DNA from: an uncultured delta proteobacterium
GTDB taxonomy: Bacteria > Desulfobacterota > Binatia > Binatales > Binataceae
Reading direction: 5' to 3'
Assembly (NCBI GenBank): GCA_963724765.1
Contig: CAVRVY010000001.1
Coordinates: 672,001 to 736,000 of the forward strand
Length of the DNA: 64,000 nt
Below are positions 5,256-62,981 of the stretch, piece after piece. The notes under the pieces were generated by a model, which saw nothing but the letters and a program-made list of their open reading frames with translations, ran no database searches and was not told where the DNA came from. Within the stretch, counting starts at the first letter, position 1. The number at the start of each line of letters is the position of its first letter. The position numbers were made by a program, and so were the translations under genes.

Positions 5256-8200
5256 ATGACTCAACAGATGAACGGGAACTCCCGAGAGAATGGCCTGCGG
5301 CAGTCCGACGGTGCGCCTGCCATTGCGCCGGCGCACTGGCTCGAGCGGTTTATGGCCGCGCTGGCATGTGCGTCGGAATCCGACATGTCGCAACTCAACG
5401 CGCTGCTCCGGACCGGCCTCGCCGTGGTGTTCTTCTTTGAAGTGGCCACCTGGTTGGAGGTCGCGCGATTCCAACCCGCGCTCCTGCATGCGGAGCGGCC
5501 CTTCTTCATCTTCGACATCGCGCTGGTGAGCGGCGGTCTCAGTCTGACCTATTTCAAATGGTTCAGCCGTAATTGGCGCACGGTGGCGATGACTTTCTGT
5601 CTCATCCTGCTTGCCAGCCGCATGCTGTCGACGTTCGCGATCAGTGAGGACGAGCCATTGATGCTGGTGCTCTTTGTGCTTGCGCTGGGTACCGCTGTGC
5701 TGGTGCCGTGGGGCGTGCGCTGGCAGGGCATCCTCACATTGGCAGGCCTGATTGCGTTTGCGATCGCCGGCGTGGAGGGTGTGGTCCAGCCAGTGGACCT
5801 GCATCGATGGCTTGTGCTGGCAGCCGTGGGAGCCTTCGCGTTGAGCTTCACGGCGCTGAAAGATCACTATCGATCCCAAGCCATCCTGATCGAAGCCCTG
5901 TTATACAACGAAAAGTGTCTGGCCCGGAGCGAGACGATGTTGCGTACGGTCTTCGATGCCGTGCCGGACATCGTGACCCTGACCAGGTTCGTCGACGGAA
6001 AGTTATTCGAGGTCAACGCGGAGTTTCTCAAATGCGCCGGGCTCAGCCGAGAGCAGGCGCTTGCGACCACGGTGCTCGAAGTCGCGGCATGGAAAAGCGC
6101 CCAATTGCGGCACGAGTACATCGAGGAACTGAAGGAGAAGGGCCACGTCCGGAATTTCGAGACCGAATTTCGGATTCACGGGGTGCTCGTACCGCATCTC
6201 CTGTCATCCGTGGTGGTCGAGATCGATGGCGAGCTTTACGCGCTCAACGTCGCGCGCGATGCCACCAGCATCAAGGAAAATGAATGCGCGCTGCGCGAGG
6301 CCCAGGAACGGCTCCGCACGCAGGTCGAGGAGTTGACCGCGACGCAGGGCCGCCTGCGCGCCGAAGTCGTTGAACGCGAAGCCGCTGAGCGCGTCGCCCG
6401 CGAGCGCGAGACCACGGTGCTGAAGGTTTTTGAGGCCAGCCCCGACATCATCACTGTCTCAAGCCGGCGCGATTTTCGGCTTATCCGGGCCAACAGCGTG
6501 TTTTTCCGGGAGACAGGGTACGCTCCGGAGGAAATCCTCGGAAGGCCAATCCACTCGAAGTTCTGGGCCAACCGCGATCAGCGCGAGCGGTTCAAAGAGG
6601 CGCTGGATCGCGACGGCCTCGCACACAACATGGAGGCCGACCTCAAGATGCAGGACGGCACCATCAATTCTTACCTGCTCTCCTCGGTGGCGGTTGAGCT
6701 GAGCGGTGAACCGTGCAGGGTATCCTTCTGGCGCAACGTTACCGAAGCCAAACGTGCGGCGCAGCGAGTTGCCGACAGCGAGGCGACGCTGCGCAGGATG
6801 TTCGAGGCCACGCCCGATATAATCATCACTCGGCGCGCAGACGGGCCGATCCTCGACGTCAACGACGAGTTTGTAAAGCGTACCGGGATCACGCGCGAGC
6901 AGGCGTTGGGATCCTCGATGGACGATGTCCGCCTTTTTCTCCGGCCCGAAGATCGCGCGGAATTCCTTCGCCGGGTTCAGGCCGACGGCATCATCCAGGA
7001 TTTCGAGGCGGACTTTAGCCTCAAAGGCGTCGCGGTGCCGTACCTGGTTTCGGGCGCAGTGGTCGAATCCGAAGACGGGCCCCTCATTTTTGGTATCTCG
7101 CGCGACATCGGCGCACGCAAGCAGATGGAACGCGAGCTTATCGCGGCGCGCGAGGCGGCGCTGGCCGCGTCCCGCGCCAAATCCGAGTTTCTTTCCAGCA
7201 TGTCGCATGAGATCCGCACCCCCATGAACGCGATCCTCGGGATGGTGGATCTGTTGAGCGATGGCGCGCTCGGCGCCGAGCAACGACACTATCTCGACAC
7301 CATGCGCTCCAACGGCAACGCTCTGATGCATCTGATCAACGACATCCTCGACGTTGCCAAGATCGAAAGCGGCCGCCTGAGCCTGGAGTCGCTTAGCTTC
7401 GACCTTGAAGACGTGGTCGACAAGGCGATCGAAACGATGAGCGTGCGCGCGCATGCCAAGGGCCTGGAACTGATGGCGCGTATTCCGCCGCACGTGCCGC
7501 CTAATCTGATCGGCGACCCGCTGAGGCTGCGTCAGATTTTAATCAACCTGGCAGCCAACGCGATCAAGTTCACCGAACAAGGCGAGGTCGCGTTGACGGT
7601 CGAAAGCCTCTCGCCGGCCGAGGCTCTGCGCCTCGGCTTTTCGGCCGACCCGGCCCAAGGCGAGGGCGGCCATCCGGGCGCCCCCGTCGCCTGGCTGCGC
7701 TTCTCAGTGGCCGACACCGGGATCGGAATCGCTGCCGGCCATCTGGGCGCGATCTTCTCCAGCTTCACCCAGGCCGATGCGTCCGTCTCGCGCCGCTTTG
7801 GCGGCTCCGGGCTAGGGCTTACGATCGTGCGGCGCCTGTGCGAGATGATGAGCGGGCGGGTCGAGGTGGAAAGCGAAGTCGGCCGCGGTTCGATTTTCCG
7901 GGTTACGGTCCCTCTGGGTATCGACACCCGGCCGCTGGCGGCCGAAGGGCGCGGCGCGGAAGTCAACCTCGACGGCGTTCGGATACTCGTGGTCGATGAC
8001 AACGACACCAACCGCCTGATCCTGCGCGAAATGCTTGTGCGCAATCGCGCCGTGGTGACCGAGGCCGCCAGCGGCGCGGCGGCGCTCGCCGAACTCGCCC
8101 GCACCCGCGCGGCCGGCCGCCCGTACCGGCTGATGCTGCTCGATTACCGGATGCCGGGCATGGACGGAGTGGAGGTAGCGCGCAAAGCGATCGACCATGG

Positions 8201-27765: not shown

Positions 27766-27863
27766 AACAATAGTTTGTGTCCCACGTATGGTTTATGTCA
27801 ATGGTCGAAAGGCGCCGCCGGTCATCAGAGCTTTCGCCGCGCGCCCGCGATACCAGGCCTAAA

Positions 27864-28706
27864 ATGCGCAGCTACTCGGCGACGCCGACAACTCGCGCGC
27901 TCACTGCGACCGGCGGGTTCCTGGACGGCTTCAGTTACTCGCTCAACCCCTACGTTGGATGCGCCTTCGGCGATCGCGGCGGATGTCCATTCTGTTACGT
28001 GCGAGCGCTGCCGGTGGCGCGCGCGCAGGCGGGGCCGTGGGGCGCGTGGGTAATCGCGAAGTCCAATCTGCTCGAATTGCTCGCGCGCGAGCTTCGCGCG
28101 CTGGAACAATCGGGAAAGCTCGAGCGCGCGGCCGTCTTCATGTCGAGCGCGACCGATCCGTACCAGGGGATGGAGCGGCGGATGCGCCTGACGCGCGGCG
28201 CCTTGGAGTTGTTCGTGCGGCGGCCGCCGCGCCGCGTGCTGTTGCAGACCCGGAGCCCGATGATCGAGCGCGACCTCGATTTGCTCGTGCAGCTCGGCCC
28301 GCGGCTCATCGCCTCGATAACCGTCGAGACCGACGACGAGCAGGTGCGCCGCGCGGTCACGCCGACCTCGCCGTCAATTGCGCGGCGGCTGGCGGCGGCG
28401 CGCCGGCTGCGCGCAGCCGGCGTGTTCGTCCAGCTCGCGGTGGCGCCGATGATGCCCAATCATCCGGAGCGCCTGGCCGCGCTGGCTGACGGCGCAGCCG
28501 ACCGCGTCGTGGTCGATACGTACTTCGACGGCGACGGCTCGGGCGGCCGGCGCTCGCGAGCGCTTAAGATGGGCGAGCTGTATGCGCGGCTGGGCTACGA
28601 GGGATGGTTCCAGCCGGGCGCGGAGCGCGATTTGATGGCGGCGATGCGCGCGCGGCTGGGCGAGGAGCGGGTGCTGTTCAGCCGCGAGGGATTTAACGCG
28701 GTGTAG
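27864..28706 (+). CDS. Radical SAM protein, SplB/spore photoproduct lyase-like family
   Basis: 'SLNPYVGC..C..CY', 'FMSSATDPYQ..E', 'QTRSP...RD'. The Cys motif is CX7CX2C. Confidence 0.88.
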   Translation: MRSYSATPTTRALTATGGFLDGFSYSLNPYVGCAFGDRGGCPFCYVRALPVARAQAGPWGAWVIAKSNLLELLARELRALEQSGKLERAAVFMSSATDPYQGMERRMRLTRGALELFVRRPPRRVLLQTRSPMIERDLDLLVQLGPRLIASITVETDDEQVRRAVTPTSPSIARRLAAARRLRAAGVFVQLAVAPMMPNHPERLAALADGAADRVVVDTYFDGDGSGGRRSRALKMGELYARLGYEGWFQPGAERDLMAAMRARLGEERVLFSREGFNAV

Positions 28707-28811: not shown

Positions 28812-29849
28812 ATGGACTTTGGAATCCTATTGCCGTTTCGAAACCCCGCGCAATGGAACCGGCCGATAACTGAAGTTTACGACCAGCATCTTGAGGAAGC
28901 CGTGCTGGCGGAAGAACTGGGATACGATCACGTCTGGACCACCGAGCATCATTTCTACGACGACGCCTGGTCGCCGTCGCTGTTGCCGATTCTCTCCGCC
29001 ATCGCCCAGCGCACCAGCCGCATCCGTTTGGGCACCTTCATCATCATCCTGCCCTTTCATCATCCGGTCCGCGTGGCCGAGGATGCTGCGACGGTCGATA
29101 TCCTCTCAAAGGGGCGATTGGACCTGGGCGTTGGCCAGGGCTACGTAGTCAGCGAGTTCGATAGCTTCCGTATTCCGCGCAGTCAGCGTGGCGGACGAGT
29201 CGAGGAGGGCGTGGAGCTGATCAGGCGCTGCTTCACCGAAGAGAATTTTTCTTTCGAGGGCAAGTACTACCAGATGAAAAACGTGAATCTGACGCCCAAG
29301 CCGGTGCAGAAGCCCTATCCGCCAATCTGGATCGCGGCGATGGCGGAAAAGTCGGTCTCACGCGTGGCACGCACGGGATATCATCTGGCCGGCAGTGGCG
29401 GAGTCGATCTCCAGAAGATGTACGATGCGGGACTGCGCAGCCACGGCCATGACGTCGCGAGCCATTACATCGCGCAACTGCGCGCGGTCTATGTGGCCGA
29501 GACGCGCGAGCAGGCGTGGGACGACGCTGAGGAGCATCTGTACTACATGATGACGGCGTACGACCGCCGCTTTAAGGAAGCCAACGATCTGCCGTGGAGC
29601 GAGGCGGTTTTCTCGCGCTCGGACGTTCCGCCGCCGGGCGAGATGCGCAACACGCCGGGCCTTAGTTTCTTTCAGGCGCCGCTCGCGGTTGGAACTCCCG
29701 ATGACGTGGTGCGGGATTTGCGCCGATACAGCGAGGCGGGCCGGGTGACGCATCTGGTGATGTGGATGCAGTTGCCCGGGATGCCGGCGCACAAGGCGCG
29801 CCGCTCGATGGAATTGTTTGCGAAAGAAGTGATGCCGCGACTGCGCTGA
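28812..29849 (+). CDS. LLM-class flavin-dependent oxidoreductase
   Basis: 'AEELGYDHVWTTEHH', 'HPVRVAEDAATVD.LS.GR', 'PKPVQKPYPPIW', 'FAKEVMP'. Confidence 0.93.
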   Translation: MDFGILLPFRNPAQWNRPITEVYDQHLEEAVLAEELGYDHVWTTEHHFYDDAWSPSLLPILSAIAQRTSRIRLGTFIIILPFHHPVRVAEDAATVDILSKGRLDLGVGQGYVVSEFDSFRIPRSQRGGRVEEGVELIRRCFTEENFSFEGKYYQMKNVNLTPKPVQKPYPPIWIAAMAEKSVSRVARTGYHLAGSGGVDLQKMYDAGLRSHGHDVASHYIAQLRAVYVAETREQAWDDAEEHLYYMMTAYDRRFKEANDLPWSEAVFSRSDVPPPGEMRNTPGLSFFQAPLAVGTPDDVVRDLRRYSEAGRVTHLVMWMQLPGMPAHKARRSMELFAKEVMPRLR

Positions 29850-29905
29850 CGCAGGCGGTTACTGCGACGACGCGAGGCGACGCGTTCCTTGTGGTCTTGC
29901 GCCAG

Positions 29906-30154
29906 TCAGTGCTGCGGCGATGGGCTCTTGACCAGATGCACGATGCCGACCAGGACGATCGCGCCCACCGTCGCCATCGCCAAGTGCCCGAGTCCGCTGT
30001 AAACCGGAATATTGAGCGCGCCGAAGATCCAGTTGCCGATTACCGCGCCTACCAGGCCGAGCAGAATGTCGGCGAACATCCCATAACCCTTGCCGCGGAT
30101 TATCTTGCCCGCCAGCCATCCCGCGATTAATCCGATAATGATTGCGCCGATCAT
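29906..30154 (-). CDS. GlsB/YeaQ/YmgE (transglycosylase-associated) membrane protein
   Basis: 'IIGLIAGWLAG.I..G.G.G...DILLG.VGA.IG...ATVGAIVL'. GGAGG RBS. Confidence 0.92.
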   Translation of the reverse strand: MIGAIIIGLIAGWLAGKIIRGKGYGMFADILLGLVGAVIGNWIFGALNIPVYSGLGHLAMATVGAIVLVGIVHLVKSPSPQH

Positions 30155-30326
30155 GCGATGGAGCCTCCTTGTGATGAAAGGTCTGTGTATGACGAAAACG
30201 CCGGAGCTCGCACCGGCCACGATCTATTCGAAGCCGCGAACGACCTGACCCGCAGCACCTTTCCTAAACGGAAAGGGAGTAAAGCTTTTTTGCTCCTCTC
30301 AGTTCGGTGCGCGTCGCCAATCACGC

Positions 30327-30968
30327 TCAGGCGGCCGTGTACTGGTCAACTGGAAACATCAGGCGACCGCGCAGGATCGGTACGCACGCAGGTGGAAAGT
30401 CCTGCACGATTTCGCCCCCCGCGTCGCGCAGGAGCCCGATGAAGCGCTCAAGATGGAGCATCGCGCCGGTCGGCAGGTCATGCAGCACGACCACGCTCCA
30501 CGACGTGGCGCAGCACTGCACGAGCGCCCGCTCGACCCATCCGTGGGGGTCCTCCCAATCGCGCGGGACGCAATTCCAGAGCACGCAGGTGAAGCCGCCG
30601 GCGCATAGGTAGTCGACCACCTTGCGATTGAGCAGGCCCGAATCGAGCGCGCCGCCGCCGCCGAAGGGGCGGAAGAGTCGGTCGGGATGCGCGAGCGCGC
30701 CGAGCATCCGCTGGGCGCGGCCGATTTCGTCCTCGGCGCCGTCGTGGTCTTCGCGCCGGCCGAACGGCTTCGTATGGGTCAGGCTGTGATTGCCGATCCA
30801 GTGGCCTTCGGCGTGAGCCCGCTCCGCACGCGCGCGGCGCTCGGGGTCGCCGAGCTTCTCTCCGATCACGAAGAAGGTCGAGCGCACATCCGCGGCGCCG
30901 AGCACGTCGAGGACCTGGGCGGTCACTTCGGGCTCGGGTCCGTTGTCGAAGCTGAGCGTGATTTTCAC
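30327..30968 (-). CDS. Polysaccharide deacetylase (NodB/CE4) family protein
   Basis: 'LSFDNGP', 'TFFVIG', 'GNHSLTH', 'FRP.G', 'RDW', 'VLHD'. Confidence 0.88.
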   Translation of the reverse strand: MKITLSFDNGPEPEVTAQVLDVLGAADVRSTFFVIGEKLGDPERRARAERAHAEGHWIGNHSLTHTKPFGRREDHDGAEDEIGRAQRMLGALAHPDRLFRPFGGGGALDSGLLNRKVVDYLCAGGFTCVLWNCVPRDWEDPHGWVERALVQCCATSWSVVVLHDLPTGAMLHLERFIGLLRDAGGEIVQDFPPACVPILRGRLMFPVDQYTAA

Positions 30969-31063
30969 TTCACTTCGACCATCCTTGACGCCGGTTCCGC
31001 CGGGCGTCACGCCCCCCCGGCATCGCGCGGCTCGTGTTTGGCGCTCGGCGGCGCTCGCCCCGT

Positions 31064-31183
31064 CTACTTCTTTTGTTCCATCGGGGCGCCGCAGCACTTG
31101 AGCGCGCCCGCGCCGCCCTTGGTGACGATTACCTGCGAGCCGCACTTGCCGCAGATGTAAACTTTTCCGAGCTGATTAGCCAT
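31064..31183 (-). CDS. Desulforedoxin-like 39-aa metal-binding protein (copy A; not in the ORF track)
   Basis: Hand translation MANQLGKVYICGKCGSQVIVTKGGAGALKCCGAPMEQKK*. CxxC-x15-CC matches desulforedoxin spacing. GGAG RBS upstream. Confidence 0.88.
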   Translation of the reverse strand: MANQLGKVYICGKCGSQVIVTKGGAGALKCCGAPMEQKK

Positions 31184-31230
31184 CGTTGTTGGTTGCTCCG
31201 TTAAGTTGATGTGATGCGCCGCGCACAGCC

Positions 31231-32025
31231 TCAGGCGCCGCGAAACAGCGGCTTGCGCTTGTCCAGGAAGGCCCGTACGCCTTCGGCGCGGTCGGCTGTG
31301 GTTTGTAGCAAGGCGTACAGATCCTCTTCAAGCCTTATACCTTGATCCAGGGTCAGGTCGTATCCCTTGCGCACGGCTTCCTTGGCCAGACGCGCGGCGA
31401 CCGGGCCGCGGCTGATGACTGCACGCACGACTTCGGCGGCCACGCGTTCGAGCGCGGCGCGGCCGGTTGCGGCATAAGTCACGAGCCCCACGCGCAGCGC
31501 CTCGCCGCCATCGATCGTCGCGCCGGTCAGCAGCAGCCGGAGCGCATGGGCCGCGCCGATAAGCCGCGGCAGGCGCTGGGTGCCGCCAAAGCGTGGCAAC
31601 CGGCCGCGCCCGAGCTGGCTCATCGTGAAGCGCGCGGATCGCGCTGCGACGCGAAGATCCGCCGCGAGCGCCAGTTCCATCCCTTCATCGGCGGCGACGC
31701 CGTCGATAATCGCCAGCGTTGGCTTGGCGAGCACCGCGATCGATTCGACCACCATCGGCACAATCGAATCGACGTCATCGTCGAAGCCCGCGCAGAAGTT
31801 GCCGCCCGCGCCGCGAATCACCAGCATCAACGCGTCCGCGTCGTCTTCGACCTCCTCGGCTAGCTCGACCAGCCTGAGCGCCATCGCGGCATCAAGCCGG
31901 TTGCGCGCGGCCGGCCGCACGAGCGTCGCGGTGACGCATCCGCCGGCGCGCGCGACTTCGACCTGGCCGGCCGCGGCGCGCGCCGGACGCGGGCGCTCAG
32001 GGCTGCGGCGTGTCGCCCTTGTCAC
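31231..32025 (-). CDS. Enoyl-CoA hydratase/isomerase (crotonase) family protein with a degenerate active site
   Basis: 'NFCAG', 'KPTLAIIDG', 'GGTQRLPRLIG', 'EGVRAFLDKRKP.F.G'. The canonical GGG and PE motifs are replaced by 'DEG' and 'SQ'. Confidence 0.88.
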   Translation of the reverse strand: MTRATRRSPERPRPARAAAGQVEVARAGGCVTATLVRPAARNRLDAAMALRLVELAEEVEDDADALMLVIRGAGGNFCAGFDDDVDSIVPMVVESIAVLAKPTLAIIDGVAADEGMELALAADLRVAARSARFTMSQLGRGRLPRFGGTQRLPRLIGAAHALRLLLTGATIDGGEALRVGLVTYAATGRAALERVAAEVVRAVISRGPVAARLAKEAVRKGYDLTLDQGIRLEEDLYALLQTTADRAEGVRAFLDKRKPLFRGA

Positions 32026-33550
32026 GCAGCTCCTTGCGAAGGATTTTGCCGAGCGGATTCTTGGGCAGCGCCTCGATGAACTCGATCGCCTCGGGCCGCT
32101 TGAAGCTCGCCAGACGCGTGCGACAGAACTCGCTGATGTCGGCCGCGGTGACGTTCTGCCCCGGCCGCGGGACGACGAAGGCCTTGACCGTCTGTCCCCA
32201 TTCGACCGACGGCACGCCGATCACCGCAGCCTCGTCGATCGCCGGATGGCTCATCAGGACGGCTTCGATCTCGGCGGGCGCGATATTTTCGCCGCCGCGG
32301 ATGATCATGTCGTCCTTGCGTCCGGCGAAGAACACGTAGCCCTCTTCGTCGATCCATCCAAGGTCGCCGGTCGCGCGCCATCCCTCGGGCAGACGGGAAT
32401 CGTCCTCGCGTCCGGCGTAGCCCTTCATGATGCGCGGGGTGCGGATGAGGATTTCGCCGATCTGGCTCGGCGCCAGCAGGTTGCCCTCGTCGTCGCGCAC
32501 GGCGACCTCGACGTCGGGCAGCGGGCGGCCGATCGAGTTGAGCCGCTTGAGCTTCAGCTCGACGGTTTTGCTGTCGCCGTCAATACGATGGTCGTCGGGA
32601 CCGAGCACGGTCAACGAGGAGGTGGTTTCGGTCTGGCCGTAGGCGTTGACGAAGCCGACGGTTTTGGGGAACGCCTCGATCGCGCGGCGGATGGTCTGAA
32701 TCGGCATCGCCGCGCCGCCATACGCGAGATTGGTAAGGCTCGAGAGATCGGTGTTGGCGAACGACGGCTCGTCGAGCAACTGCTTCATCATCGTCGGCAC
32801 GACGAAGGCGTGCGTGACCTTCTCGCGCGCGACCAGTTGCAGCCAAGTCTTCGGATCGAACTGCGGCATCACCACCATCCGCCGCCCGGTCCACAGGTTG
32901 GTCATCATCGCGGTGGTTCCAGCGATGTGGTAAAACGGCACGCACACTAACGCGACGCCGCGATCGCTGCCGTCGGCCATCTCAACGTTGGCCGTGACGT
33001 AGGCGGCGAAATCGCGAAAACGCAACATCACGCCCTTGGGCAGCGAAGTCGTGCCGCTGGTGTACATCAGCACCGAGACATCCTCGTCGTCGACCTCGAC
33101 TTCGCCCTCATCGACCTCGGCTGCCTTGGCCAGGTCCGCGAGCCGCGGCACCCCGGCCTTGCCCTCGCCCCAGGCCACCACCTTGGCGGTATTGAGCTTG
33201 GGCGACACGCGCGCCATGAGGTCGAGGTAGCGGTCGCCGGCCAGGAGCACCTTGGCCCCGGCGGTGTTGATCATGTACTCGAGCTCGGCGTCCTTGGCGC
33301 GGTAGTTGAGCGGCAGCCAGGTGAGTCCGGCCTTGGCAGCGGCGTAGTAGCCGGCGATGTAGTTGTCGGAGTTGGTGTCGAGCGCGGCGATTATGTCGCG
33401 AGGTTTGAGCCCGAGCGTCTTGAAGGACGAGCTCAGACGCCCGACCAGTTCGTTGAGTTGCGCGTAGTTGAGCCTGCGATCGCCGAAGACCAGGATTTCC
33501 TGATCGGGAGCGATCGAGCCCGGGATGCTGATGAAACTGACGGTGTTCAC
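31997..33550 (-). CDS. Long-chain acyl-CoA ligase / AMP-binding enzyme
   Basis: 'YTSGTTSLPKG', 'AYGQTET', 'TGDLG', 'GRKDDMIIRGGENI', 'LPKNPLGK'. Confidence 0.95.
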   Translation of the reverse strand: MNTVSFISIPGSIAPDQEILVFGDRRLNYAQLNELVGRLSSSFKTLGLKPRDIIAALDTNSDNYIAGYYAAAKAGLTWLPLNYRAKDAELEYMINTAGAKVLLAGDRYLDLMARVSPKLNTAKVVAWGEGKAGVPRLADLAKAAEVDEGEVEVDDEDVSVLMYTSGTTSLPKGVMLRFRDFAAYVTANVEMADGSDRGVALVCVPFYHIAGTTAMMTNLWTGRRMVVMPQFDPKTWLQLVAREKVTHAFVVPTMMKQLLDEPSFANTDLSSLTNLAYGGAAMPIQTIRRAIEAFPKTVGFVNAYGQTETTSSLTVLGPDDHRIDGDSKTVELKLKRLNSIGRPLPDVEVAVRDDEGNLLAPSQIGEILIRTPRIMKGYAGREDDSRLPEGWRATGDLGWIDEEGYVFFAGRKDDMIIRGGENIAPAEIEAVLMSHPAIDEAAVIGVPSVEWGQTVKAFVVPRPGQNVTAADISEFCRTRLASFKRPEAIEFIEALPKNPLGKILRKELRDKGDTPQP

Positions 33551-34380
33551 AGTACTCCGTTTCCTCCAGGGCGGCGCGCCCTCTTGGGGGCGGACATGGC
33601 CGCCGGTGCTCGCTCTTCGAGCCTTAGATTTTCGAGCCTGCGTGCGAGCCGACGCTCCATCGCCAGCCCTTCATTGAGCGGCAGGTCCAGGCCGTCCCAG
33701 ACCGCCAGCTTCGCCATCGCAACCCGCTCGCGCGGCAAGCGGGCCAGGCGGCGTGCCAGCACTCCGGCCGCGCGCATCAGCGCCGCGCCAGGCACGACTT
33801 CGGCGACCAAACCTATTGCTAAAGCCTCCTTTGCGTCAATCCAACGGCCCGTCAGGCAAAGATCGAGCGCCCACCCGGGTCCCAGGCGGCGCGAGGCGGT
33901 CTGCGTGCCGGCCACTCCGGGAATCATTCCCAGCCCCGTTTCGGGCAGGCAGAACGACGCATCATCGGTTGCGATTGCGATATCGCACAGCAGCATCATC
34001 TCGAGGCCGCCGCCCACCGCGTAGCCGTGAACCGCGGCGACGGTCGGGATTGTCAGCGCGCGCAGCCGGCCCCATACGTCACGCCGAAAGCGGACCCATC
34101 GCGCGACCGTCGGCGAGGGCGCAGTGCCGAACTCGCTCACGTCGCCGCCGGTGGAGAACGCCGGACCTGCGCCGGAAAGCACCATCGCGCGGACTTCGGG
34201 ATCGTCGTGGATAGCACTGAGCGCGCCGAACAGATCGTCGCGCATTGCCACGTTGTAGGCATTGAGCTGGCGCGGCCGGTTGAGCGTTATCCATGCGATC
34301 CGGTCGCGCTTTTCGAAACGAATCGTGCTGAAGCCCGGCGACGGGGGCGATGGGCGGATGGCATGCGATGATTGCGCCAT
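33547..34380 (-). CDS. Enoyl-CoA hydratase/isomerase family protein
   Basis: 'ITLNRP..LNA', 'AFSTGGD', 'AVGGGLE', 'F.LPE..LG.IPG'. Both catalytic Glu positions are present. Confidence 0.92.
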   Translation of the reverse strand: MAQSSHAIRPSPPSPGFSTIRFEKRDRIAWITLNRPRQLNAYNVAMRDDLFGALSAIHDDPEVRAMVLSGAGPAFSTGGDVSEFGTAPSPTVARWVRFRRDVWGRLRALTIPTVAAVHGYAVGGGLEMMLLCDIAIATDDASFCLPETGLGMIPGVAGTQTASRRLGPGWALDLCLTGRWIDAKEALAIGLVAEVVPGAALMRAAGVLARRLARLPRERVAMAKLAVWDGLDLPLNEGLAMERRLARRLENLRLEERAPAAMSAPKRARRPGGNGVL

Positions 34381-34413
34381 GGGAGCGATGACCGCGCGAG
34401 CGGACCGGCGGAC

Positions 34414-35967
34414 TCAGGCGGAGAACAAGTCTGCGCCGGGGCTGGCCGCGACCTCGGGGCGCCCGCGCTCGAAGATAACGCGTCCGCCGACGATCGTGAT
34501 ATCGACCGGCAGGTTCATCAGCTCGGCGGGCTTGAGTGCCATCGGACCGCGCGGCAGCACCATAAGGTCGGCAAGGCGCCCGAGCGCGATCTCGCCCGCT
34601 TCAAGCCGGGCCAGGCGGGCCGCCTGCGTGGTGAAGAGCCTGAAGCCCTGCTCGATCGAAATCCGTTCGCTAAGGGAGATTTCGTAGCCCTCGATCGAAA
34701 CGCGCATCGCGGCGGCGGCGATCGCGGCCAGCGGCCGCGCCGGCGTGACCGGCGCGTCGGTGGCGCCGGCGATCTCGAGGCCGGCCTCCAGCAGGCTTCG
34801 CGCCCGATACAGGTAGGGCAGCAGGCCCGGCTCGGTGACGTACTTGGCGCCGCGATAGTAGGAGAAGCCCGGGTTGGTCACCACCCACGCGCCCAAGGCT
34901 TTGAGGCGCTCGAGATGCTCCGGCGTGATCACACCGCCATGCTCGATACGAAAAAACGGACCGCCGTCGAGCGCGGGCGACATCCCACGCGCGGCGGTCT
35001 CCAGCGAGTTGAGCGCGAGTTCGAGTTCTTCGACCTCGGTGCAATGGAAGGCCGAATCGAGTCCGGCCTGGCGCGCCCGCGCGACCCATCGCGCGATCGG
35101 GCGATAGTCGGTCTGGGGACTCTCGACGAACTTGACCGCGGCGAGCGTGATCCCGGCCGGCTGCGCGGCCCGCGCCGCCTCGGCAAGGGCGTCCAGGTAG
35201 GGCGCGCCAAGCATCATCGCCACCCGCTGCGTCACGGCGCGCCCGCTCACCAGCCGCGCCATCAGCGCGACTTCCTCGGGGCCGTTGCGCACGGTCGCGT
35301 CGGTGAACGCGGTGACGCCTGCGGCGGCCAGTTCGCGACTGAACAGACGCGCGCGAGATTCCAGCTCGGCCGGTGTGACGCGCGGCAACCGCCGCGAAAT
35401 ATAGCTTTCCATCCCGGCCACCAGACCGCTTAGCCGGCCCGTGGCGTCGCGCATCAGGACGGCGCCTTCGGGCGGCTTGAAGTCGGGCGCCTCGAGACCG
35501 AGTGCGGCGATCGCGCGCGAGTTGAGCCACGAGGCATGAAGTGTCTGATGGCGCAGACGGAGCGGATTCTTGGGCACCGCCGCGTCGAGTTCCGCGCGGG
35601 TGGGTCCGCGCCGCCCGGCGAGCAGCGCCTCGTCGCATCCGAACGCGCGCAGCCAGTTGCCCGGCGGCGTCTTGCCCGCGGCCACGCGCAACTCCGCCAT
35701 CAGGTCGTCGAGCTGGCGGCATCGCCACAGACTAAGCCCGGCCGCCGCCGACGCGGCCTCGAGGAAATGGAGATGCGAATCGATCAGGCCGGGCGCGACG
35801 ACGCGTCCGGCGAGCCGAATCAGATGCGTGCGCGGGCCGACCAGCGGCTTGAGTTCGCTATACGGCCCGAGGGCGAGGATGGTGCCCCCGGCGACCGCAA
35901 TCGAATCGCCGCCGGGATAGCCCAGGATCACTCCTTCATGCAGAACCAGGTCAGCCTTGAGGGCCAT
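34414..35967 (-). CDS. YtcJ-like amidohydrolase (Amidohydro_3)
   Basis: 'PGLIDSHLH', 'PTRAELD', 'H..WLNS.A', 'FHC', 'RIEH', 'TDAP', 'G.LADL.VL'. Confidence 0.92.
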   Translation of the reverse strand: MALKADLVLHEGVILGYPGGDSIAVAGGTILALGPYSELKPLVGPRTHLIRLAGRVVAPGLIDSHLHFLEAASAAAGLSLWRCRQLDDLMAELRVAAGKTPPGNWLRAFGCDEALLAGRRGPTRAELDAAVPKNPLRLRHQTLHASWLNSRAIAALGLEAPDFKPPEGAVLMRDATGRLSGLVAGMESYISRRLPRVTPAELESRARLFSRELAAAGVTAFTDATVRNGPEEVALMARLVSGRAVTQRVAMMLGAPYLDALAEAARAAQPAGITLAAVKFVESPQTDYRPIARWVARARQAGLDSAFHCTEVEELELALNSLETAARGMSPALDGGPFFRIEHGGVITPEHLERLKALGAWVVTNPGFSYYRGAKYVTEPGLLPYLYRARSLLEAGLEIAGATDAPVTPARPLAAIAAAAMRVSIEGYEISLSERISIEQGFRLFTTQAARLARLEAGEIALGRLADLMVLPRGPMALKPAELMNLPVDITIVGGRVIFERGRPEVAASPGADLFSA

Positions 35968-36061
35968 CAGGGTATTAATCGCCGGAGCATCGAGGGCGAA
36001 GAGAGCAACCGCGAAGCATCCTCGCTTGTAGCCCGGACTCTAGCCAGACCTTGACCGGACT

Positions 36062-36205
36062 CTAGTCCGAGGACGGAAGCGCCTTGGCTTCCTTAATTTT
36101 CATTTCCGCCTCGCAACACTCGATCGCGCCGGTGCCCGGCTTGTTGCACAGCACCTCGGTGCCGCACTTCTCGCACAGGTAACGCTTGCCCAATTGGTTA
36201 GCCAT
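36062..36205 (-). CDS. Desulforedoxin-like 47-aa protein with a C-terminal KEAKALPSSD tail (copy B; not in the ORF track)
   Basis: Hand translation MANQLGKRYLCEKCGTEVLCNKPGTGAIECCEAEMKIKEAKALPSSD*. GGGAG RBS upstream. Paralog of 31064-31183. Confidence 0.9.
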   Translation of the reverse strand: MANQLGKRYLCEKCGTEVLCNKPGTGAIECCEAEMKIKEAKALPSSD

Positions 36206-36340
36206 CGTTGAATACTCCCATGATCGTCGCCAGCCGTTGCCGGTCCGGTGGTGAAATTCGTCTGAGGACCGCTGGCTGAAAATTCAAGCCGTATGGTCCC
36301 CGGCACTTCTTTAGAGCATCGGACGCATTTCTTCAATCAG

Positions 36341-37468
36341 TTACTTCATCAATTGCACCGGTTGTGCGTCGCTTGCAAACGGCAGCTCGCTCACTGCCGC
36401 CGCGAGTTCGCCGTCCGCGTCATCGATACGCACCACCGCGCCCGGCGTCCATGCGCTGTGATGCAGGATCGCGAGGGCGAGCACGCCGAGCCGTGGCGAG
36501 CGGAGCGGGCTCGTGAGACGGCCGACCTCTTTGCCCGCGAGCATCACGCGCGCGTCGGCGGCCGGAACGCGGTCGCCTTCAATCCTGAGCCCCATCAGCC
36601 GCCGCTTCAACGCGCCGCGCGCGGTCGCCCGCTCGACGGTTTCCTGCCCGATGTAGCATCCCTTGTTGAACGAGATCGCCGGTTCCATCCGTGCTTCGAG
36701 CGCGATCGTTTTGTCGTTGGTGTCGACCCCGACCCGTGCAGTGCCGCTCTCGACCCGCAGGATCTCGGCCGCTTCGATACTGATCTCTCTGACTTCGCAC
36801 CGGTCTTCGCGGCGAATTTCGCCGTGCTCGCCGCCCGCCGCGACCAGCCGCGCAACGATTTCTGGCGCGCTCTCATGCCGGGCGAGAATGGTGAAAGCCG
36901 GCGCGTCCCATCGCGTCACCTGCGCGACCAGCGCGCCTCCCTCGGCCTCGCCAAATCGCCACGCGCCGGTGAGCGCCGCCGGCTCGCCCAAAACCGCGGC
37001 TACCGCTAGCGCCGCGTGCGGCCCGTCTATTTGAATCACGTCTATTTGAATCACGTCCTGCTGAATCACGTCCTGGACCACGCCGTCGTCAACAGCGCCG
37101 CCGCTTTCTTCCAACTCGACGTCGTCGGCGACCAGGAAGCGCTCGAGGTGGGCGCGCACGGCCGGCCACAGCGAGCGTTCCATTTCGAGCAGCAGTGCGT
37201 CGGCGGTGGCCCACACGTTCGCCTCGGCAATCAGATGGGCGCGCTCGGTCAGGAACAGCGCCGCGACGAGGTCGCCCGGCTTGAGTCCTTTGATGTCGTT
37301 GCTGCACATCCCGTGAAGGAATGACGCGCGGTCGTCCCCGCGCATTCGGATAATGACGCGCTCGGCGCACAGCCGCACGCCCGCGCCTTCCGTGAGCGCG
37401 CGGTAATCGGCCTCAAGGCCGCCGGTGGCGTGGCGCTCTGGCGCCATCGTGGAACTGATGTAGTCCAA
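36341..37468 (-). CDS. ygfZ: YgfZ/GcvT-family folate-binding protein (Fe-S cluster maturation/repair)
   Basis: Signature 'KGCYIGQE' and 'G.DRASFLHG..SND'. The start may be ATG 37448. Confidence 0.9.
   Translation of the reverse strand: MDYISSTMAPERHATGGLEADYRALTEGAGVRLCAERVIIRMRGDDRASFLHGMCSNDIKGLKPGDLVAALFLTERAHLIAEANVWATADALLLEMERSLWPAVRAHLERFLVADDVELEESGGAVDDGVVQDVIQQDVIQIDVIQIDGPHAALAVAAVLGEPAALTGAWRFGEAEGGALVAQVTRWDAPAFTILARHESAPEIVARLVAAGGEHGEIRREDRCEVREISIEAAEILRVESGTARVGVDTNDKTIALEARMEPAISFNKGCYIGQETVERATARGALKRRLMGLRIEGDRVPAADARVMLAGKEVGRLTSPLRSPRLGVLALAILHHSAWTPGAVVRIDDADGELAAAVSELPFASDAQPVQLMK
37024..37082. repeat. 15-bp in-frame tandem repeat inside ygfZ (3 copies plus a partial)
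   Basis: CGTCTATTTGAATCA x2, CGTCCTGCTGAATCA, CGTCCTGGACCA. Encodes VVQ-DVIQQ-DVIQI-DVIQI-D. Confidence 0.85.
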
Positions 37469-37574
37469 TTTCTGATTCGACTCCCTGCCAATTCGGCCGT
37501 CGCCGGCCCTGACGATTCCAATTCTATCATCGCCGGGGATTGCGTATACTGTTCCCGGAGGCGCGAAACGTCCT

Positions 37575-37718
37575 ATGGGTACATTTGTTTTCGGACTTGT
37601 AGTGGGGTTCGGCGCGGCGCTTGCGTTCTTCGTCTACGACGAGGGCGAAGTCTTTCTCAACCTGTCGCGGCAAATCAAGCTGGTCGCCGGCAAGTACAAG
37701 CAGGAGCATCGCGCGTAA
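37575..37718 (+). CDS. 47-aa single-TM small protein (not in the ORF track)
   Basis: MGTFVFGLVVGFGAALAFFVYDEGEVFLNLSRQIKLVAGKYKQEHRA*. GGAGG upstream. Ends 29 bp before the next gene. Confidence 0.7.
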   Translation: MGTFVFGLVVGFGAALAFFVYDEGEVFLNLSRQIKLVAGKYKQEHRA

Positions 37719-37747
37719 CCGGGCACCGTCGCACGGGGGACTTTTTG

Positions 37748-39430
37748 ATGTTCCGGCGGACGAGAGAGCCGGCTGCTGGCGCGCCGGTGCGAGGGCGTCG
37801 CCGCTGGCAGCGAGCGCAAAAGGGCGCCCTGCTCGGCGCTCTTTTGTGTGGGATGGCGTGTGCGATTATTCCCGCGGCGCGCGCCGCCGATGATCCCGGG
37901 GGCGCCTCTGCCGCACTCAGCAACCAGGCCTTCGCGCTGCTGAACTCGCTGAATGCGCCGGACGCCGACGGTAACGCGAACCCGGGCGCCAAGGCGCTTT
38001 TGGGACCGGTCGCGAGCTTCGCCGGTGATGCGCAGACGCTCAGCCAGGCGCTTGGCGCCGGTGACAATGCCGGCGCGCGGCGCGCCACGGCCTCGCTTGA
38101 CGCCGACGCCGCGTCGGTTGACGCTGCGCTGAAAACGCATGGCGGGGCGATTAAGGCGGATCGATGGGACGCGCTCAAGCAACAGCTCGCCGCGATCGAA
38201 AAGAGCGTTCCACCTGCGCCTGCATCCGCCGCGCCTGCATCTGCCGCGCCGCCCGCATCAGGCGAGCCCGCAAACGCGAGCGCGGCGGCCGCTCCAGGAG
38301 CGGCTCCGGTACCGGCGCCGGCAGCGGACAGCGCCGCGGCGCCGAGCGCGCCCGCGCCTGGGGCTGCGGATAGCGGCGGACCCACGATCAAGATTGAGTC
38401 GCGCAGCGTGGTCGGCGACGTTACATATCTGAAGGGATACTTCGAAGGTTCCGCGCTCCAGTCGGCCGGCATCTACGAAGGCGCGCAGAGCGTCAAGCCG
38501 ATCAAGGTGGACGACGTGATCGGGCGCCAGAAGGTTGAATTCCAACTTTCGCTGCGCGACGCCGATATTGCGACCAACCTTCGCGTCATCGACCAGGCCG
38601 GGCGCGTAGCGACGGCCTCCGTCTTCGCTGAGGACTCGACGGCGATGGCAAGCACTGGCACGGAATCGGGAGTCGAGGTCGACCGCGGCGCCGGCTCAAC
38701 CTCCGGCAGCAACACCGCCGAGATTCCGAGCGCGAGCGCGTCATCTCCTGGCATGGGTGAGGGTGGACCGGAGGAGTCGGCGCCGGGCGCGGATGAAGGC
38801 CTGGGCAGCGCCGGCATAGGCGGCGGACTCGTTGGCGGCGGGCTGGGCGGAGGAATCGGCGCTCCGATCGGTAACGTCCAGATCAACATCGAGGCGGTAA
38901 ACCCGGTGAACCCGCTCTCGCACGTCTACCAGGTGGTCGGTCAGATAATCGGACACGGCGTGCATGCCGCGGGAATCTATGTCGACGGCCGGCTGGTCAA
39001 GCGACTACCCGTCAGCCGCGGCGCCAACGTGAGTAACTTCCACACGACCTTCATGATGAACGGCGGCACGGCGACGATTCGCGCGTTTAGCGAGGGCAAT
39101 CAGTACGTCGAGACGTCGATCGCGATGCCGCCGGCGGTGGCGTCGGCGCCGCCGATCGTGGTCGCGCCCTATGGGATGAACCCCTACAGCCCGTACCCGA
39201 TGGATCCTTACGGAGGTCTTTACGGCAGTCCTTATGGCGTCCCGTATGGAACTCCTTACGGCGCGAGCCCTTCCTACGGCTACAACATCAGCCCCTACGG
39301 AATCACGCGCTACCCGATCAGTCCGTACGGCGCGAGTCCGTATGGTGCGGTTCCGTTCGGCGTCAACCCGTATGTCACGCCGATCAATCCCTACCGCAAC
39401 GCGCTGCCGATGGTCCCCTTGGGCCGCTAA
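37748..39430 (+). CDS. Secreted hypothetical protein with low-complexity linkers and a Pro-Tyr-Gly repeat tail
   Basis: Signal ending 'AARA', helical domain, two similar beta domains ('AGIYEG', 'AGIYVDG') and a PYG-rich C-terminus. Confidence 0.8.
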   Translation: MFRRTREPAAGAPVRGRRRWQRAQKGALLGALLCGMACAIIPAARAADDPGGASAALSNQAFALLNSLNAPDADGNANPGAKALLGPVASFAGDAQTLSQALGAGDNAGARRATASLDADAASVDAALKTHGGAIKADRWDALKQQLAAIEKSVPPAPASAAPASAAPPASGEPANASAAAAPGAAPVPAPAADSAAAPSAPAPGAADSGGPTIKIESRSVVGDVTYLKGYFEGSALQSAGIYEGAQSVKPIKVDDVIGRQKVEFQLSLRDADIATNLRVIDQAGRVATASVFAEDSTAMASTGTESGVEVDRGAGSTSGSNTAEIPSASASSPGMGEGGPEESAPGADEGLGSAGIGGGLVGGGLGGGIGAPIGNVQINIEAVNPVNPLSHVYQVVGQIIGHGVHAAGIYVDGRLVKRLPVSRGANVSNFHTTFMMNGGTATIRAFSEGNQYVETSIAMPPAVASAPPIVVAPYGMNPYSPYPMDPYGGLYGSPYGVPYGTPYGASPSYGYNISPYGITRYPISPYGASPYGAVPFGVNPYVTPINPYRNALPMVPLGR

Positions 39431-61076: not shown

Positions 61077-62789
61077 TCAATGGCTGTTTTGCGAAACCGT
61101 GCGCATCACTTTGCCCGGCAGGCCGCCCTGGTATTCGTCATGCGCGAACAGAAGCTCGCCGCCGACGATCGTGTACTCGATTCCCTCGGAGCGCTCGATC
61201 AGCCGCGGCTCGCCGCCCGGCAGATCGTTGACCCACTCGGGCGCCAGCGGCTTTATCGTGGCCGGATCGAAGATCACGAGGTCCGCATCCATCCCCGGCG
61301 CGAGCCGCCCCTTGGTCCGCAGTTCGAGGAAGTCGGCCAGCTCCGAGGTCAGCCGCCGCACAGCTTCCTGCAGTGTCAGCACGCCGCGCCGATGCACCCA
61401 TTCGTGCAGCAGATAGGAGGTCAGGCCGGCATCGCAGTGCTGCGCGACGTGCGCCCCCGCGTCGCTAAGCCCGATCAGCGTGTTGGGCAGCTTGAGGATG
61501 CGGCTTACGATGTCGGGATTGACGTTGATCACCGAGAGCGTCACGCCCAGCTCCATTCGCTCATCGAGCGCGAGGTCGAGCAGCGCGTCGACGGGGTCCT
61601 TGCCGGTCGCGGCAGCTAGGTCGGCGACGCTCAGGTTGAGCGAGCGGCGGTTGTGCTGGTTTTCCACGCGCGCGATATGCACGCGATCCCATCGGCCGCG
61701 AAAAATCGCCTTGCCGCCGCCGTCTTTGATCTCGTTGCGAAACGCGGCGCGGAAATCCGCCGAGCCCACGAGCGCCATCTGCTCATCGGCGCCGCGGTTG
61801 AAAATTCCTTTCCACGAATCGAGCGCGGCAAAGATGAACGGCTCGCGCATCGTGTAGTACTGCTGGATCGGACGCGGCGTGACCTGCGGCAGAATCTTGA
61901 GCCCGCTTTGGACGAGCGGGGCAAGGCGCTCGACCGTGCGCTGATGCGCATCGGGCGGCGTGCCGGGCAGGTCGAGCAGCGCGAGCCAGGTCACCGGCCG
62001 CGTGCTCTCGCGCGCGAGCATGGTCAGCAAGTCGAGACCGCCCTCGTTGGGCACGCTGGTCGAGCCGCGGTTAGGCAGAATCTCGATAATGCCGCGGCCC
62101 AGCTCGCGCATCGCGCGGCAGAGCGCGCCGAGTTCCTCGTCGCTCGCCATCCGGCTCGCCAGCGGACGGGCCTGGAAGCCGATATGCTGCGGCGCGAGGC
62201 TCATCGAGAAGCCGGCCGCGCCGGCGCAGAGCGCCTCGCGATACAGACGCGCCATCTCGGCCGTCTCGGCCGCGGTCGCGGCGCGCTCGGCCGCCTCCTC
62301 ACCGATCACGTAAAAGCGCAACGCCGAGAGCGGCACCAGGAAGCCGACGTTGAGCGCGACGCCGCGCCGCTCGGTCGCCGCCATGTACTGCGGAAAGCTT
62401 TCCCAGTCCCACGCCACGCCGCGCATCAGCACGTCGTGCGGCAGCGCCTCGACGTTGACTAGGTCCCACGCCATCGTGGATTGCTGTCCGGGGCGGCACG
62501 GTGCGACGCCCACACCGCAATTGCCCATCAGCAGCGTGGTGACGCCGTGCCAGCACGAGCAGGTGAGCAGCGGGTCCCACGAAATCTGCGCGTCGTAATG
62601 CGTATGGATATCGATGAAGCCGGGCGCCAGCACCGCGCCGCCGGCGTCGATCTCGCGCCGCGCGGCGCCGCCGGTCTGCTCGCCGACCGCGGCGATTTTG
62701 CCATCCTTCACTGCGAGCGCGCCGTGGCGCACGGGCGCGCCGGTGCCGTCGCAGATGGTGGCGTTGCGGATCAGCAGGTCGTGGGCCAT
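61077..62789 (-). CDS. N-acyl-D-amino-acid deacylase family amidohydrolase
   Basis: '[15 protein letters not shown]', 'GNCGVG', 'SDAGAH', 'ADL..FDP'. Confidence 0.93.
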
Positions 62790-62981
62790 CGCGAGATCCT
62801 CCGGAGCGCGGAGGCGCACGAAAAACTCGGACGTGGGCGCGCGCGATTTTATCGATGCGCCCCGCGCCGCCCAAGCCATCGCGGGCCGCCGCGAACTCAG
62901 GTGAGCTTCGCGCCGGCTCTATGGAGTGTCAAGGCGCGTCTGGCGAACGAATTACCCGGGAATCAGAGGCGAGGTCGGGCG

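Follow-up and report, generated by a model that had tools for sequence, protein, structure and literature searches.

Two desulforedoxin-like mini-proteins co-inherited with one clade of acyl-CoA ligases in a catabolic operon of the Binataceae and beyond

The stretch of DNA analysed in this work (the window, 64,000 nucleotides of the Binataceae assembly GCA_963724765.1, contig CAVRVY010000001.1, positions 672,001 to 736,000) carries on its minus strand a catabolic operon that begins and ends with two very small genes, DxA (36062..36205, 47 aa) and DxB (31064..31183, 39 aa). They encode the two halves, A-type and B-type, of a desulforedoxin-like module that is co-inherited with one clade of AMP-forming acyl-CoA ligases, with crotonases in the phylum of this bacterium, and with one subfamily of Amidohydro_3 hydrolases. 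We consider it somewhat better than an even bet that the module is a dedicated, non-catalytic and non-redox heterodimeric partner of this ligase clade and of the pathway in which the ligase takes part.

Four genes lie between the two mini-genes, all of them on the minus strand. In the order of transcription, they encode a YtcJ-like Amidohydro_3 metal hydrolase of an uncharacterised subfamily (34414..35967, 517 aa; PF07969, 233.8 bits), a canonical crotonase/enoyl-CoA hydratase, ECH1 (33547..34380, 277 aa; PF00378, 178 bits), an AMP-forming acyl-CoA ligase of the class I adenylate-forming or ANL type (31997..33550, 517 aa; PF00501 and PF13193), and a divergent crotonase, ECH2 (31231..32025, 264 aa by the longest open reading frame (ORF); PF00378, 131.8 bits). 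The best NCBIfam model for the ligase is PRK06187, with 467 bits, below its cutoff of 476. The genes for ECH1 and the ligase overlap by 4 nt, and those for the ligase and ECH2 by 29 nt when the start of ECH2 is set at the GTG of the longest ORF. This order and both overlaps had been described in an earlier note made from the sequence of the window alone, along with the coordinates and translations of the two mini-ORFs, a ribosome-binding site for each, seen here as a GGAG-type motif 5' of both ATG codons, the identical string CAACGATGGCTAA that spans the start of both genes, and the C-x2-C-x15-CC arrangement of their cysteines; all of these were reproduced here.

DxA and DxB are real genes under purifying selection. 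The ratio of non-synonymous to synonymous polymorphism (pN/pS) was 0.142 for DxA in 80 related loci and 0.116 for DxB in 58, values that place both beyond chance; this selection, together with their conservation, rules out that they are chance ORFs. The related loci are the best 80 of 528, nearly all from Binataceae, Binatia or delta-/proteobacterial metagenome-assembled genomes and three with other labels, and derive from a scan of species-representative genomes in which a relative was confirmed in 528 of 550 matched stretches. A protein search returned 106 homologs of 25-83 aa, most of them of exactly 47 aa, while 1.84 billion cluster representatives, searched with a profile, yielded 1483 matches at E<=1e-3 and 364 at E<=1e-10; the ESM Atlas matches were only clusters of the mini-protein's own kind. 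The earlier note had called the mini-proteins unannotated. That description is only partly right, some homologs being named desulforedoxin or hypothetical protein in databases. The fused form presented below is covered by no Pfam or NCBIfam model. The possibility of a precursor of a ribosomally synthesised and post-translationally modified peptide (RiPP) was set aside: conservation extends over the would-be core, which folds as a domain, and there is no RiPP-type maturase in the cluster of the window, the nearest radical-SAM ORF (27777-28706) being unlinked.

The two proteins are clearly related to each other, with 22 of 39 residues identical (56%, E 1e-15) and the ligand cysteines C11, C14, C30 and C31 present in both. 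They are also the sole two matches to PF06397 (Desulfoferrod_N) in the 5.4-Mb genome, DxB with 36.1 bits, over the cutoff of 23, and DxA with 20.1 bits, under it. DxB, the more orthodox of the two, matches solved desulforedoxin (1cfw/1dxg) at 2e-4, and a profile built with 76 A-type sequences matches solved desulfoferrodoxin (1.2e-5) and desulforedoxin (5.9e-5). To the desulforedoxin-like body, DxA adds a C-terminal tail, KEAKALPSSD.

DxA and DxB are two halves of one conserved two-module mini-protein. The split order DxA-amidohydrolase-ECH1-ligase-ECH2-DxB was found in 55 of the 60 Binataceae-like loci whose sequence runs on for 5.6 kb or more downstream of DxA, and DxB was present in 58 of them. 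The five exceptions comprise two loci with the amidohydrolase only, one without amidohydrolase, one without a detected ECH1, and one with ECH2-DxB only. The same order occurs in two other families of the class, in genome G110 and, without the amidohydrolase, in G076. When 401 genomes of the GTDB phylum were searched, 299 gave matches, most of them within reading frames that, at about 125-160 aa, are as long as fused desulfoferrodoxin; stand-alone pairs in other families are tandem genes in which B lies directly upstream of A (L113-L123). This arrangement was also seen in a second, independent set of 80 metagenome loci centred on Dehalococcoidia-like A types, where B is directly upstream of A in 78. 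In addition, many cluster representatives of 81-122 aa hold both domains in a single protein, B and then A. AlphaFold2 modelling of one such fusion, P0107, with 46 aligned fusions, predicted two packed four-stranded modules (pLDDT 87, pTM 0.75) joined by a linker of low confidence. A Foldseek search of the PDB with this model gave nothing at E<=0.001, such small domains being hard for the method, and the best relevant match was superoxide reductase 2ji1 (TMq 0.40, E 1.2). The tandem B-A genes and the natural B-A fusions back the pairing of the two paralogs put forward in the earlier note, and the two halves probably associate as a desulforedoxin-like heterodimer.

Other architectures were found among the database proteins. 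In P0166, P0171, P0173, P0208 and P0215, an N-terminal domain of about 65 aa without a Pfam match precedes one A-type domain with the LPSSD tail, and appears to replace the B half; P0240, of 195 aa, consists of four desulforedoxin-like repeats in a row and lacks the LPSSD tail. Fusions of the mini-protein to enzymes were sought among longer proteins and no credible one was found. The candidates P0259 (DxA into Amidohydro_3), P0284 (mini-protein into ligase), and P0283 and P0286 (CoA-transferase into mini-protein) contain out-of-frame stretches and were rejected as gene-call or sequencing errors, which do no more than repeat the adjacency of the genes.

The linkage to the ligase and the crotonases extends through the phylum. 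Twelve loci from five other families were compared (L113-L124), and nine of them (L113-L116, L118-L121 and L124, whose contig ends after DxB) read ECH2-ECH1-ligase-DxB-DxA. L123 begins with ligase-DxB and holds a second B-A pair, and L122 ends at the B-A pair. As a reciprocal best match, the L115 ligase scores 518 bits with the window ligase, the runner-up paralog in the genome of the window reaching 163, and L115 ECH1 finds window ECH1 as the best of 23 crotonase matches in that genome (243 versus 186 bits); judged by these scores, the ligase and ECH1 of the tandem loci are orthologues of the window's genes and not generic paralogs. The earlier note had named as support a repeated association with the same clades of ligase, crotonase and amidohydrolase, and this was found. 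In class-mates of the window's bacterium the mini-protein is a cysteine-poor fusion, almost devoid of cysteines in L127 and lying within the order luciferase-like monooxygenase-crotonase-fusion-ligase-crotonase in L125, where the ligase starts one codon past the stop of the fusion, and luciferase-like monooxygenase-crotonase-fusion in L126.

The distribution of the ligase across the 401 genomes points in the same direction. Matches of at least 494 bits occur in 19, the next score being 410, and 18 of these 19 genomes have the module. The remaining one, G340, presents ECH2-ECH1-ligase followed by a remnant reading ...QPKPLPSSD* (L242, contig C308, around 6770-6810) that looks like a deleted or decayed mini-protein pair. 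Genomes with the module and without a top-tier ligase are G182, in which the contig ends at DxB, G152, which has a CoA-transferase instead, G389, in which the ligase adjoining the module scores 344 bits, and G341. The two crotonases of the operon do not look equivalent. Both positions that we presume to be the catalytic Glu residues, by the motif known from the crotonase literature, are kept in ECH1 in 82 of 82 homologous matches; at the second of them ECH2 has Gln, or His in distant copies, in every motif variant listed, and in ECH2 and its orthologues DEG replaces GGG before the first. ECH2 is probably not a plain hydratase.

The module also occurs, in its fused form, on megaplasmids of cultured bacteria. 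A tblastn search of 72,556 plasmids with P0107 identified 12 records (seven from Rhodococcus, two from Sphingobium, two from Streptomyces and one from Sphingomonas), of which 11 were analysed, the DK180 record being left out. In all 11 loci the gene, encoding 96-103 aa, directly adjoins an AMP-binding or class I adenylate-forming gene, being upstream of it in nine and downstream in two (L233 and L238). The corresponding ligases are 37-40% identical to that of the window by tblastn. The gap between the two genes is 2-59 nt in the eight annotated loci, and exactly 11 or 16 nt in six of these; the mini-protein is labelled hypothetical protein in all eight. The models tested on the fused form gave at best 19.1 bits, with Desulfoferrod_N on one protein, and none reached its cutoff. 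Six translated forms, from Rhodococcus, Sphingobium, Sphingomonas and Streptomyces, share the pattern ...(L/I/M/V)GKRY...K(P/A)LP(S/A)SD and have no Cys at three or four of the four ligand positions of the A module. Neighbouring genes encode CaiB/BaiF CoA-transferases, acyl-CoA dehydrogenases, crotonases, thiolase plus OB-fold/zinc-ribbon pairs, F420-type luciferase-like monooxygenase (LLM) oxidoreductases and phosphotransferase-family proteins. The ligase is the most consistent neighbour of the mini-protein module. A phosphotransferase-family, kinase-like gene lies within a few genes of the fused form in L231 (Rhodococcus opacus), L234 (Streptomyces sp. NBC_00080) and L235 (Sphingomonas paeninsulae), loci where the tail of the fused form ends in Ser-Ser-Asp or Ala-Ser-Asp.

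The amidohydrolase, in turn, is a frequent but not universal partner of the module. The window's genome has eight PF07969 matches, and 13 of 13 distant module-linked amidohydrolases matched the copy in the operon with 102-230 bits and the other paralogs with 44 bits or less, so that the linked copies can be assigned to the same Amidohydro_3 subfamily. At 125 bits or more this subfamily is present in 23 of the 401 genomes. The module is present in 22, namely G298 and 21 others in which the match extends to the tail at E<=2e-11; G176, where the match is weaker, was left out of the count. The two coincide in 20. G076 and G341 have the module without the subfamily, and G212, G322 and G210 the subfamily without the module. 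Among the 80 metagenome loci, 13 have a gene of this subfamily flanking the pair; 18 of the 80 extend 3.5 kb or more downstream, and 8 of these 18 have it. Among the 11 plasmid loci, L240 was the only one where it was detected. Several low-GC genomes have it next to two or three CoA-transferase III genes instead. The sole solved relatives of the window enzyme are the uncharacterised 3igh and 3icj. A second Amidohydro_3 paralog in the window (61077-62879, minus strand; G000:C1:733149-734657) is unrelated and unlinked to the module.

Such linkage could mean that the pair handles metal, either by delivering Zn or Fe to the binuclear amidohydrolase as a chaperone or by sparing metal for it. The subfamily that co-occurs with and adjoins the module has the full H-x-H / K / H / H / D set: H65, H67, K279, H308, H343 and D404, which we take to be the binuclear amidohydrolase ligands, are invariant in 69 homologs. 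In a genome of the same family (G204, contig C10), a third A-type copy (...CCGEPMKIREAKLSLPSSD; L130, 7995-8114, minus strand) was found just upstream of an ABC_tran plus ABC-3 transporter pair of the Zn/Mn-uptake type, and may reflect a link to metal supply. The coexistence of cysteine-rich and cysteine-poor versions would likewise recall, by analogy, the zinc-dependent and zinc-independent paralogs known in other families. Against this, the cysteine-poor forms are unable to chelate through the ligands they have lost, most amidohydrolases assemble their metal site by themselves, and the tightest partner of the module in cultured bacteria is the ligase, the amidohydrolase subfamily having been detected in just one of the 11 plasmid loci. 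We therefore regard a role in metal handling as very improbable.

Several observations weigh against a dedicated ligase partner. In L117, the twelfth of the tandem loci, a two-subunit class I CoA-transferase occupies the position of the ligase, because of which a strict reading of the module as a ligase subunit is not universal. G143 has a YgfZ-amidohydrolase-ECH1-ligase-ECH2 operon without a Dx gene and a fused module on another contig. The thresholds of 494 bits for the ligase and 125 bits for the amidohydrolase were chosen after seeing the gaps in the scores, and the related genomes that enter the profile counts are not independent observations. The 80 metagenome loci have no ligase or crotonase orthologue in their flanks; the nearest exceptions are one 30% ligase match on the opposite strand and one 39% crotonase match 5 kb off. 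Downstream of the pair, a gene for ribosomal protein S21, YqeY or a 7TM-HD protein is common in the annotated loci of this set. In others of these loci, the pair has CTP synthase/transaldolase genes on one side and class I CoA-transferase plus amidohydrolase genes on the other, or methylmalonyl-CoA mutase on one side and two genes for CoA-transferase III on the other. Two further points on the same side, a respiratory gene upstream of the pair and the invariance of a free terminal Asp, are considered next with the alternatives they favour.

Upstream of the pair, 11 of the 19 annotated metagenome loci have a Rieske or cupredoxin-type respiratory gene, in several cases with cytochrome b. This would suit A and B being electron carriers, that is, desulforedoxin-type Fe(Cys)4 redox proteins serving oxidoreductases of the pathway or the respiratory chain, and so would the four cysteines that DxA and DxB keep in desulforedoxin spacing and their matches to solved desulforedoxin and desulfoferrodoxin. 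Candidate redox partners exist as well: FMN-type nitronate monooxygenase (NMO, PF03060) genes lie just downstream of the pair in seven of the tandem loci whose neighbours were scanned (L113, L115, L116, L117, L118, L120 and L123), and luciferase-like monooxygenase genes are near the module in the window, in L125 and L126, and in the Rhodococcus and Streptomyces loci. The conservation pattern, however, speaks against electron transfer. In 113 A-type domains, cluster representatives selected by a C-terminal Asp or Glu, the ligand positions are CCCC in 64, CCCH in 24, CCCD in five and something else in 20, so a full Cys4 set is absent from 49 and the last 20 do not have even CCCH or CCCD; a fifth Cys, at position 20, is present in 73. 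The fusion in L127 is nearly free of cysteines, the A modules of L125 and L126 lack the ligand cysteines, and these forms, like those of the plasmids, still adjoin the same ligase clade.

What does persist where the cysteines vary is the LGKRY motif and the free C-terminal K-x-L-P-S-S-D tail. In 41 aligned fusions, a set not selected by C-terminus, only the Gly and Arg of LGKRY and the terminal Asp are invariant, none of them a metal ligand. Judged from these alignments, the Cys4 site is not the conserved core of the family, and the Fe(Cys)4 site of desulforedoxin to which the earlier note had likened the cysteines is not what the family conserves, many members, ligase-adjacent cultured forms included, being without most of the cysteines. 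Given that the ligand sets vary, and that ligase-adjacent forms that have lost the cysteines keep LGKRY and the tail, the function of the mini-protein is probably not redox, and we find an electron carrier unlikely.

The tail of the A half comprises 11 conserved residues ending in an invariant Asp. The terminal residue is Asp in 113 of the 113 A-type domains and Glu in none, the last residues being LPSSD in 52, and D47 is invariant in the 76 A-type sequences, whose alignment was not selected by C-terminus. An invariant free terminal Asp exceeds what a simple docking partner would need, and brings to mind a covalent carrier of the LysW type, in which the C-terminal Asp of the A half, or a Ser of the tail, would be loaded by the ligase or by a CoA-transferase and the amidohydrolase would release the tethered intermediate. 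In its boldest version, the Asp, adenylated by the ANL ligase or loaded by way of a CoA-transferase, would bear an amine- or acyl-linked intermediate while the crotonases act on it, until the YtcJ-like enzyme cleaves it off; a carrier system like that of LysW would then have arisen from a desulforedoxin fold and an enzyme of the acyl-CoA-ligase type, with a range from Binatia to Rhodococcus and Streptomyces. Besides the Asp being always the last residue, in fusions as in stand-alone A types, no credible fusion has an enzyme after the tail. The module adjoins the ligase in some lineages and the amidohydrolase in others, like a shuttle between loading and unloading enzymes, and non-homologous activating enzymes (ligase, class I and class III CoA-transferases) interchange beside it. 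On the other hand, ANL ligases are not known to us to work on the C-terminus of a protein, and the crotonases, acyl-CoA dehydrogenases and CoA-transferases around the module are CoA-ester enzymes. The tail is not acidic as that of LysW, there is no significant LysW match (best PF21344, E 0.009), and the presumed unloading enzyme was not found in G076 or G341 and was detected in only one of the 11 plasmid loci. A covalent carrier, in either the general or the bolder version, thus seems to us a decidedly long shot.

As a last alternative, the mini-protein might be a regulator, a role that has been proposed for zinc ribbons of the FmdB type, or might inhibit an enzyme by blocking the active site with its tail. 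Small zinc-ribbon proteins of the FmdB family occur in amidase operons, the conserved tail could mimic a substrate, and among the fusions and the window proteins one, P0115, matched the FmdB model TIGR02605 (17 bits, E 0.0045). That match is below the cutoff of 31.3 bits, though, and the mini-protein has no DNA-binding domain. Furthermore, the gap to the ligase gene is 2-16 nt in seven of the eight annotated plasmid loci, and such tight translational coupling suggests stoichiometric co-production rather than regulation. We give this alternative very little credence.

A dedicated partner of the ligase and its pathway remains our preferred reading, and physical binding, the enzyme contacted, the metal and the action of the tail are inferred as follows. 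The 39-aa B type and the 47-aa A type, the latter with its free tail, would pair as a desulforedoxin-like heterodimer, with the two genes separated to opposite ends of the operon in Binatia and in tandem (B and then A) or fused in other lineages. The pathway partners would be the ligase, the two crotonases and often the YtcJ-like amidohydrolase and CoA-transferases. The module would act through the conserved LGKRY surface and the tail with its terminal Asp, this tail being the putative working part, while the Cys4 site, where present, would hold a structural metal.

FadD-type acyl-CoA ligases are generally seen as stand-alone enzymes, and this reading, if true, would mean that one clade of them has a dedicated mini-protein with which it is co-inherited. 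By record names the range covers at least five phyla, with Binatia and others of its GTDB phylum, Chloroflexota, Actinomycetota, Pseudomonadota and Bacillota. It would thus be an unrecognised component of catabolic clusters that are routinely annotated, at present recorded as hypothetical protein or falling below ORF cutoffs. The family also illustrates the reuse of the desulforedoxin fold with its iron site reduced or lost, which calls for caution before every C-x2-C...CC mini-protein is read as a redox centre. The presence of the fused form in cultured Rhodococcus opacus, Rhodococcus sp. DK17, Sphingobium sp. RAC03 and Streptomyces strains makes these ideas testable at the bench.

With respect to the surroundings of the operon, a gene encoding a YgfZ/GcvT-fold protein (36341..37468, minus strand, 375 aa; TIGR03317, 76.6 bits, cutoff 49) precedes DxA, and is on the same strand upstream of the operon in 76 of 77 related loci. 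It is kept there across the class only, even where the Dx genes have moved away, as in G143, and the copy in the window contains the short peptide repeat VVQDVIQQDVIQIDVIQID. Downstream of DxB there is a polysaccharide-deacetylase gene of the NodB type (30327-31145, minus strand), shared by the closest relatives only (15 of 60 loci); the long 5' extension of its ORF, which overlaps DxB in another frame, is probably untranslated. A luciferase-like monooxygenase is also encoded nearby. An Rfam scan of positions 29800-37800 gave no match at E<=0.1, a promoter scan at the locus returned 0 sites, and terminator-like sites were no commoner than in shuffled sequences.

In full-text literature searches, subscription-only journals excluded, no paper tying desulforedoxin to enoyl-CoA hydratase, amidohydrolase or a zinc heterodimer was identified, and the papers listed for the LPSSD motif were all unrelated. 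For desulforedoxin-like proteins, what came up was work on oxidative stress in Clostridioides difficile. In the main text of the Binatota genome paper (PMC8262859), a search for the terms rubredoxin, amidohydrolase and enoyl-CoA hydratase gave nothing, and the one 'desulfo' found there is unrelated.

Four known systems invite comparison. The first comprises desulforedoxin itself (Desulfovibrio gigas Dx; 1cfw/1dxg) and the N-terminal domain of desulfoferrodoxin (PF06397, TIGR00319), with which DxA and DxB share the module of about 36 aa and the C-x2-C-x15-CC arrangement. Desulforedoxin is a homodimer, a two-chain unit, whereas the module described here is made of two paralogous halves, as a hetero-pair or as a fusion; its A half adds the 11-residue tail with the invariant Asp, and its Cys ligands are dispensable in much of the family. 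Its genomic partners are acyl-CoA enzymes and an amidohydrolase, and not superoxide reductase.

LysW and ArgW are similar in having a tiny metal-ribbon body and a flexible tail with a conserved acidic last residue, and in the presence of a ligase and a metal hydrolase nearby. The tail of the mini-protein, in contrast, lacks the acidic character of theirs and has Asp, not Glu, as its last residue, and while the ligase of the LysW system is an ATP-grasp enzyme and its hydrolase belongs to M20, those of the module are of the ANL and Amidohydro_3 types. The LysW models PF21344 and TIGR01206 gave no match to DxA or DxB at E<=0.01, and their best matches (E 0.009 and E 0.015, respectively) were to the fusion P0115 only, below cutoffs. 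A third parallel is offered by the DUF35-type OB-fold/zinc-ribbon proteins, which are also small and accompany a CoA-ester enzyme in catabolic clusters, and whose genes occur in the same Rhodococcus, Streptomyces and Sphingobium loci as the fused mini-protein. They belong to a different family, their partner is a thiolase or lipid-transfer protein, and they have no tail with a terminal Asp.

The fourth comparison is with MbtH-like proteins, which are small non-catalytic partners of the adenylation domains of non-ribosomal peptide synthetases. When the window proteins and the fusions were scanned with Pfam, the MbtH family gave no match, even at E<=1, and the fold differs. The resemblance lies in a small, non-catalytic protein encoded beside an adenylate-forming enzyme of the ANL type and co-inherited with it, the putative partner of the desulforedoxin-like module being a stand-alone, acyl-CoA-ligase-like enzyme.

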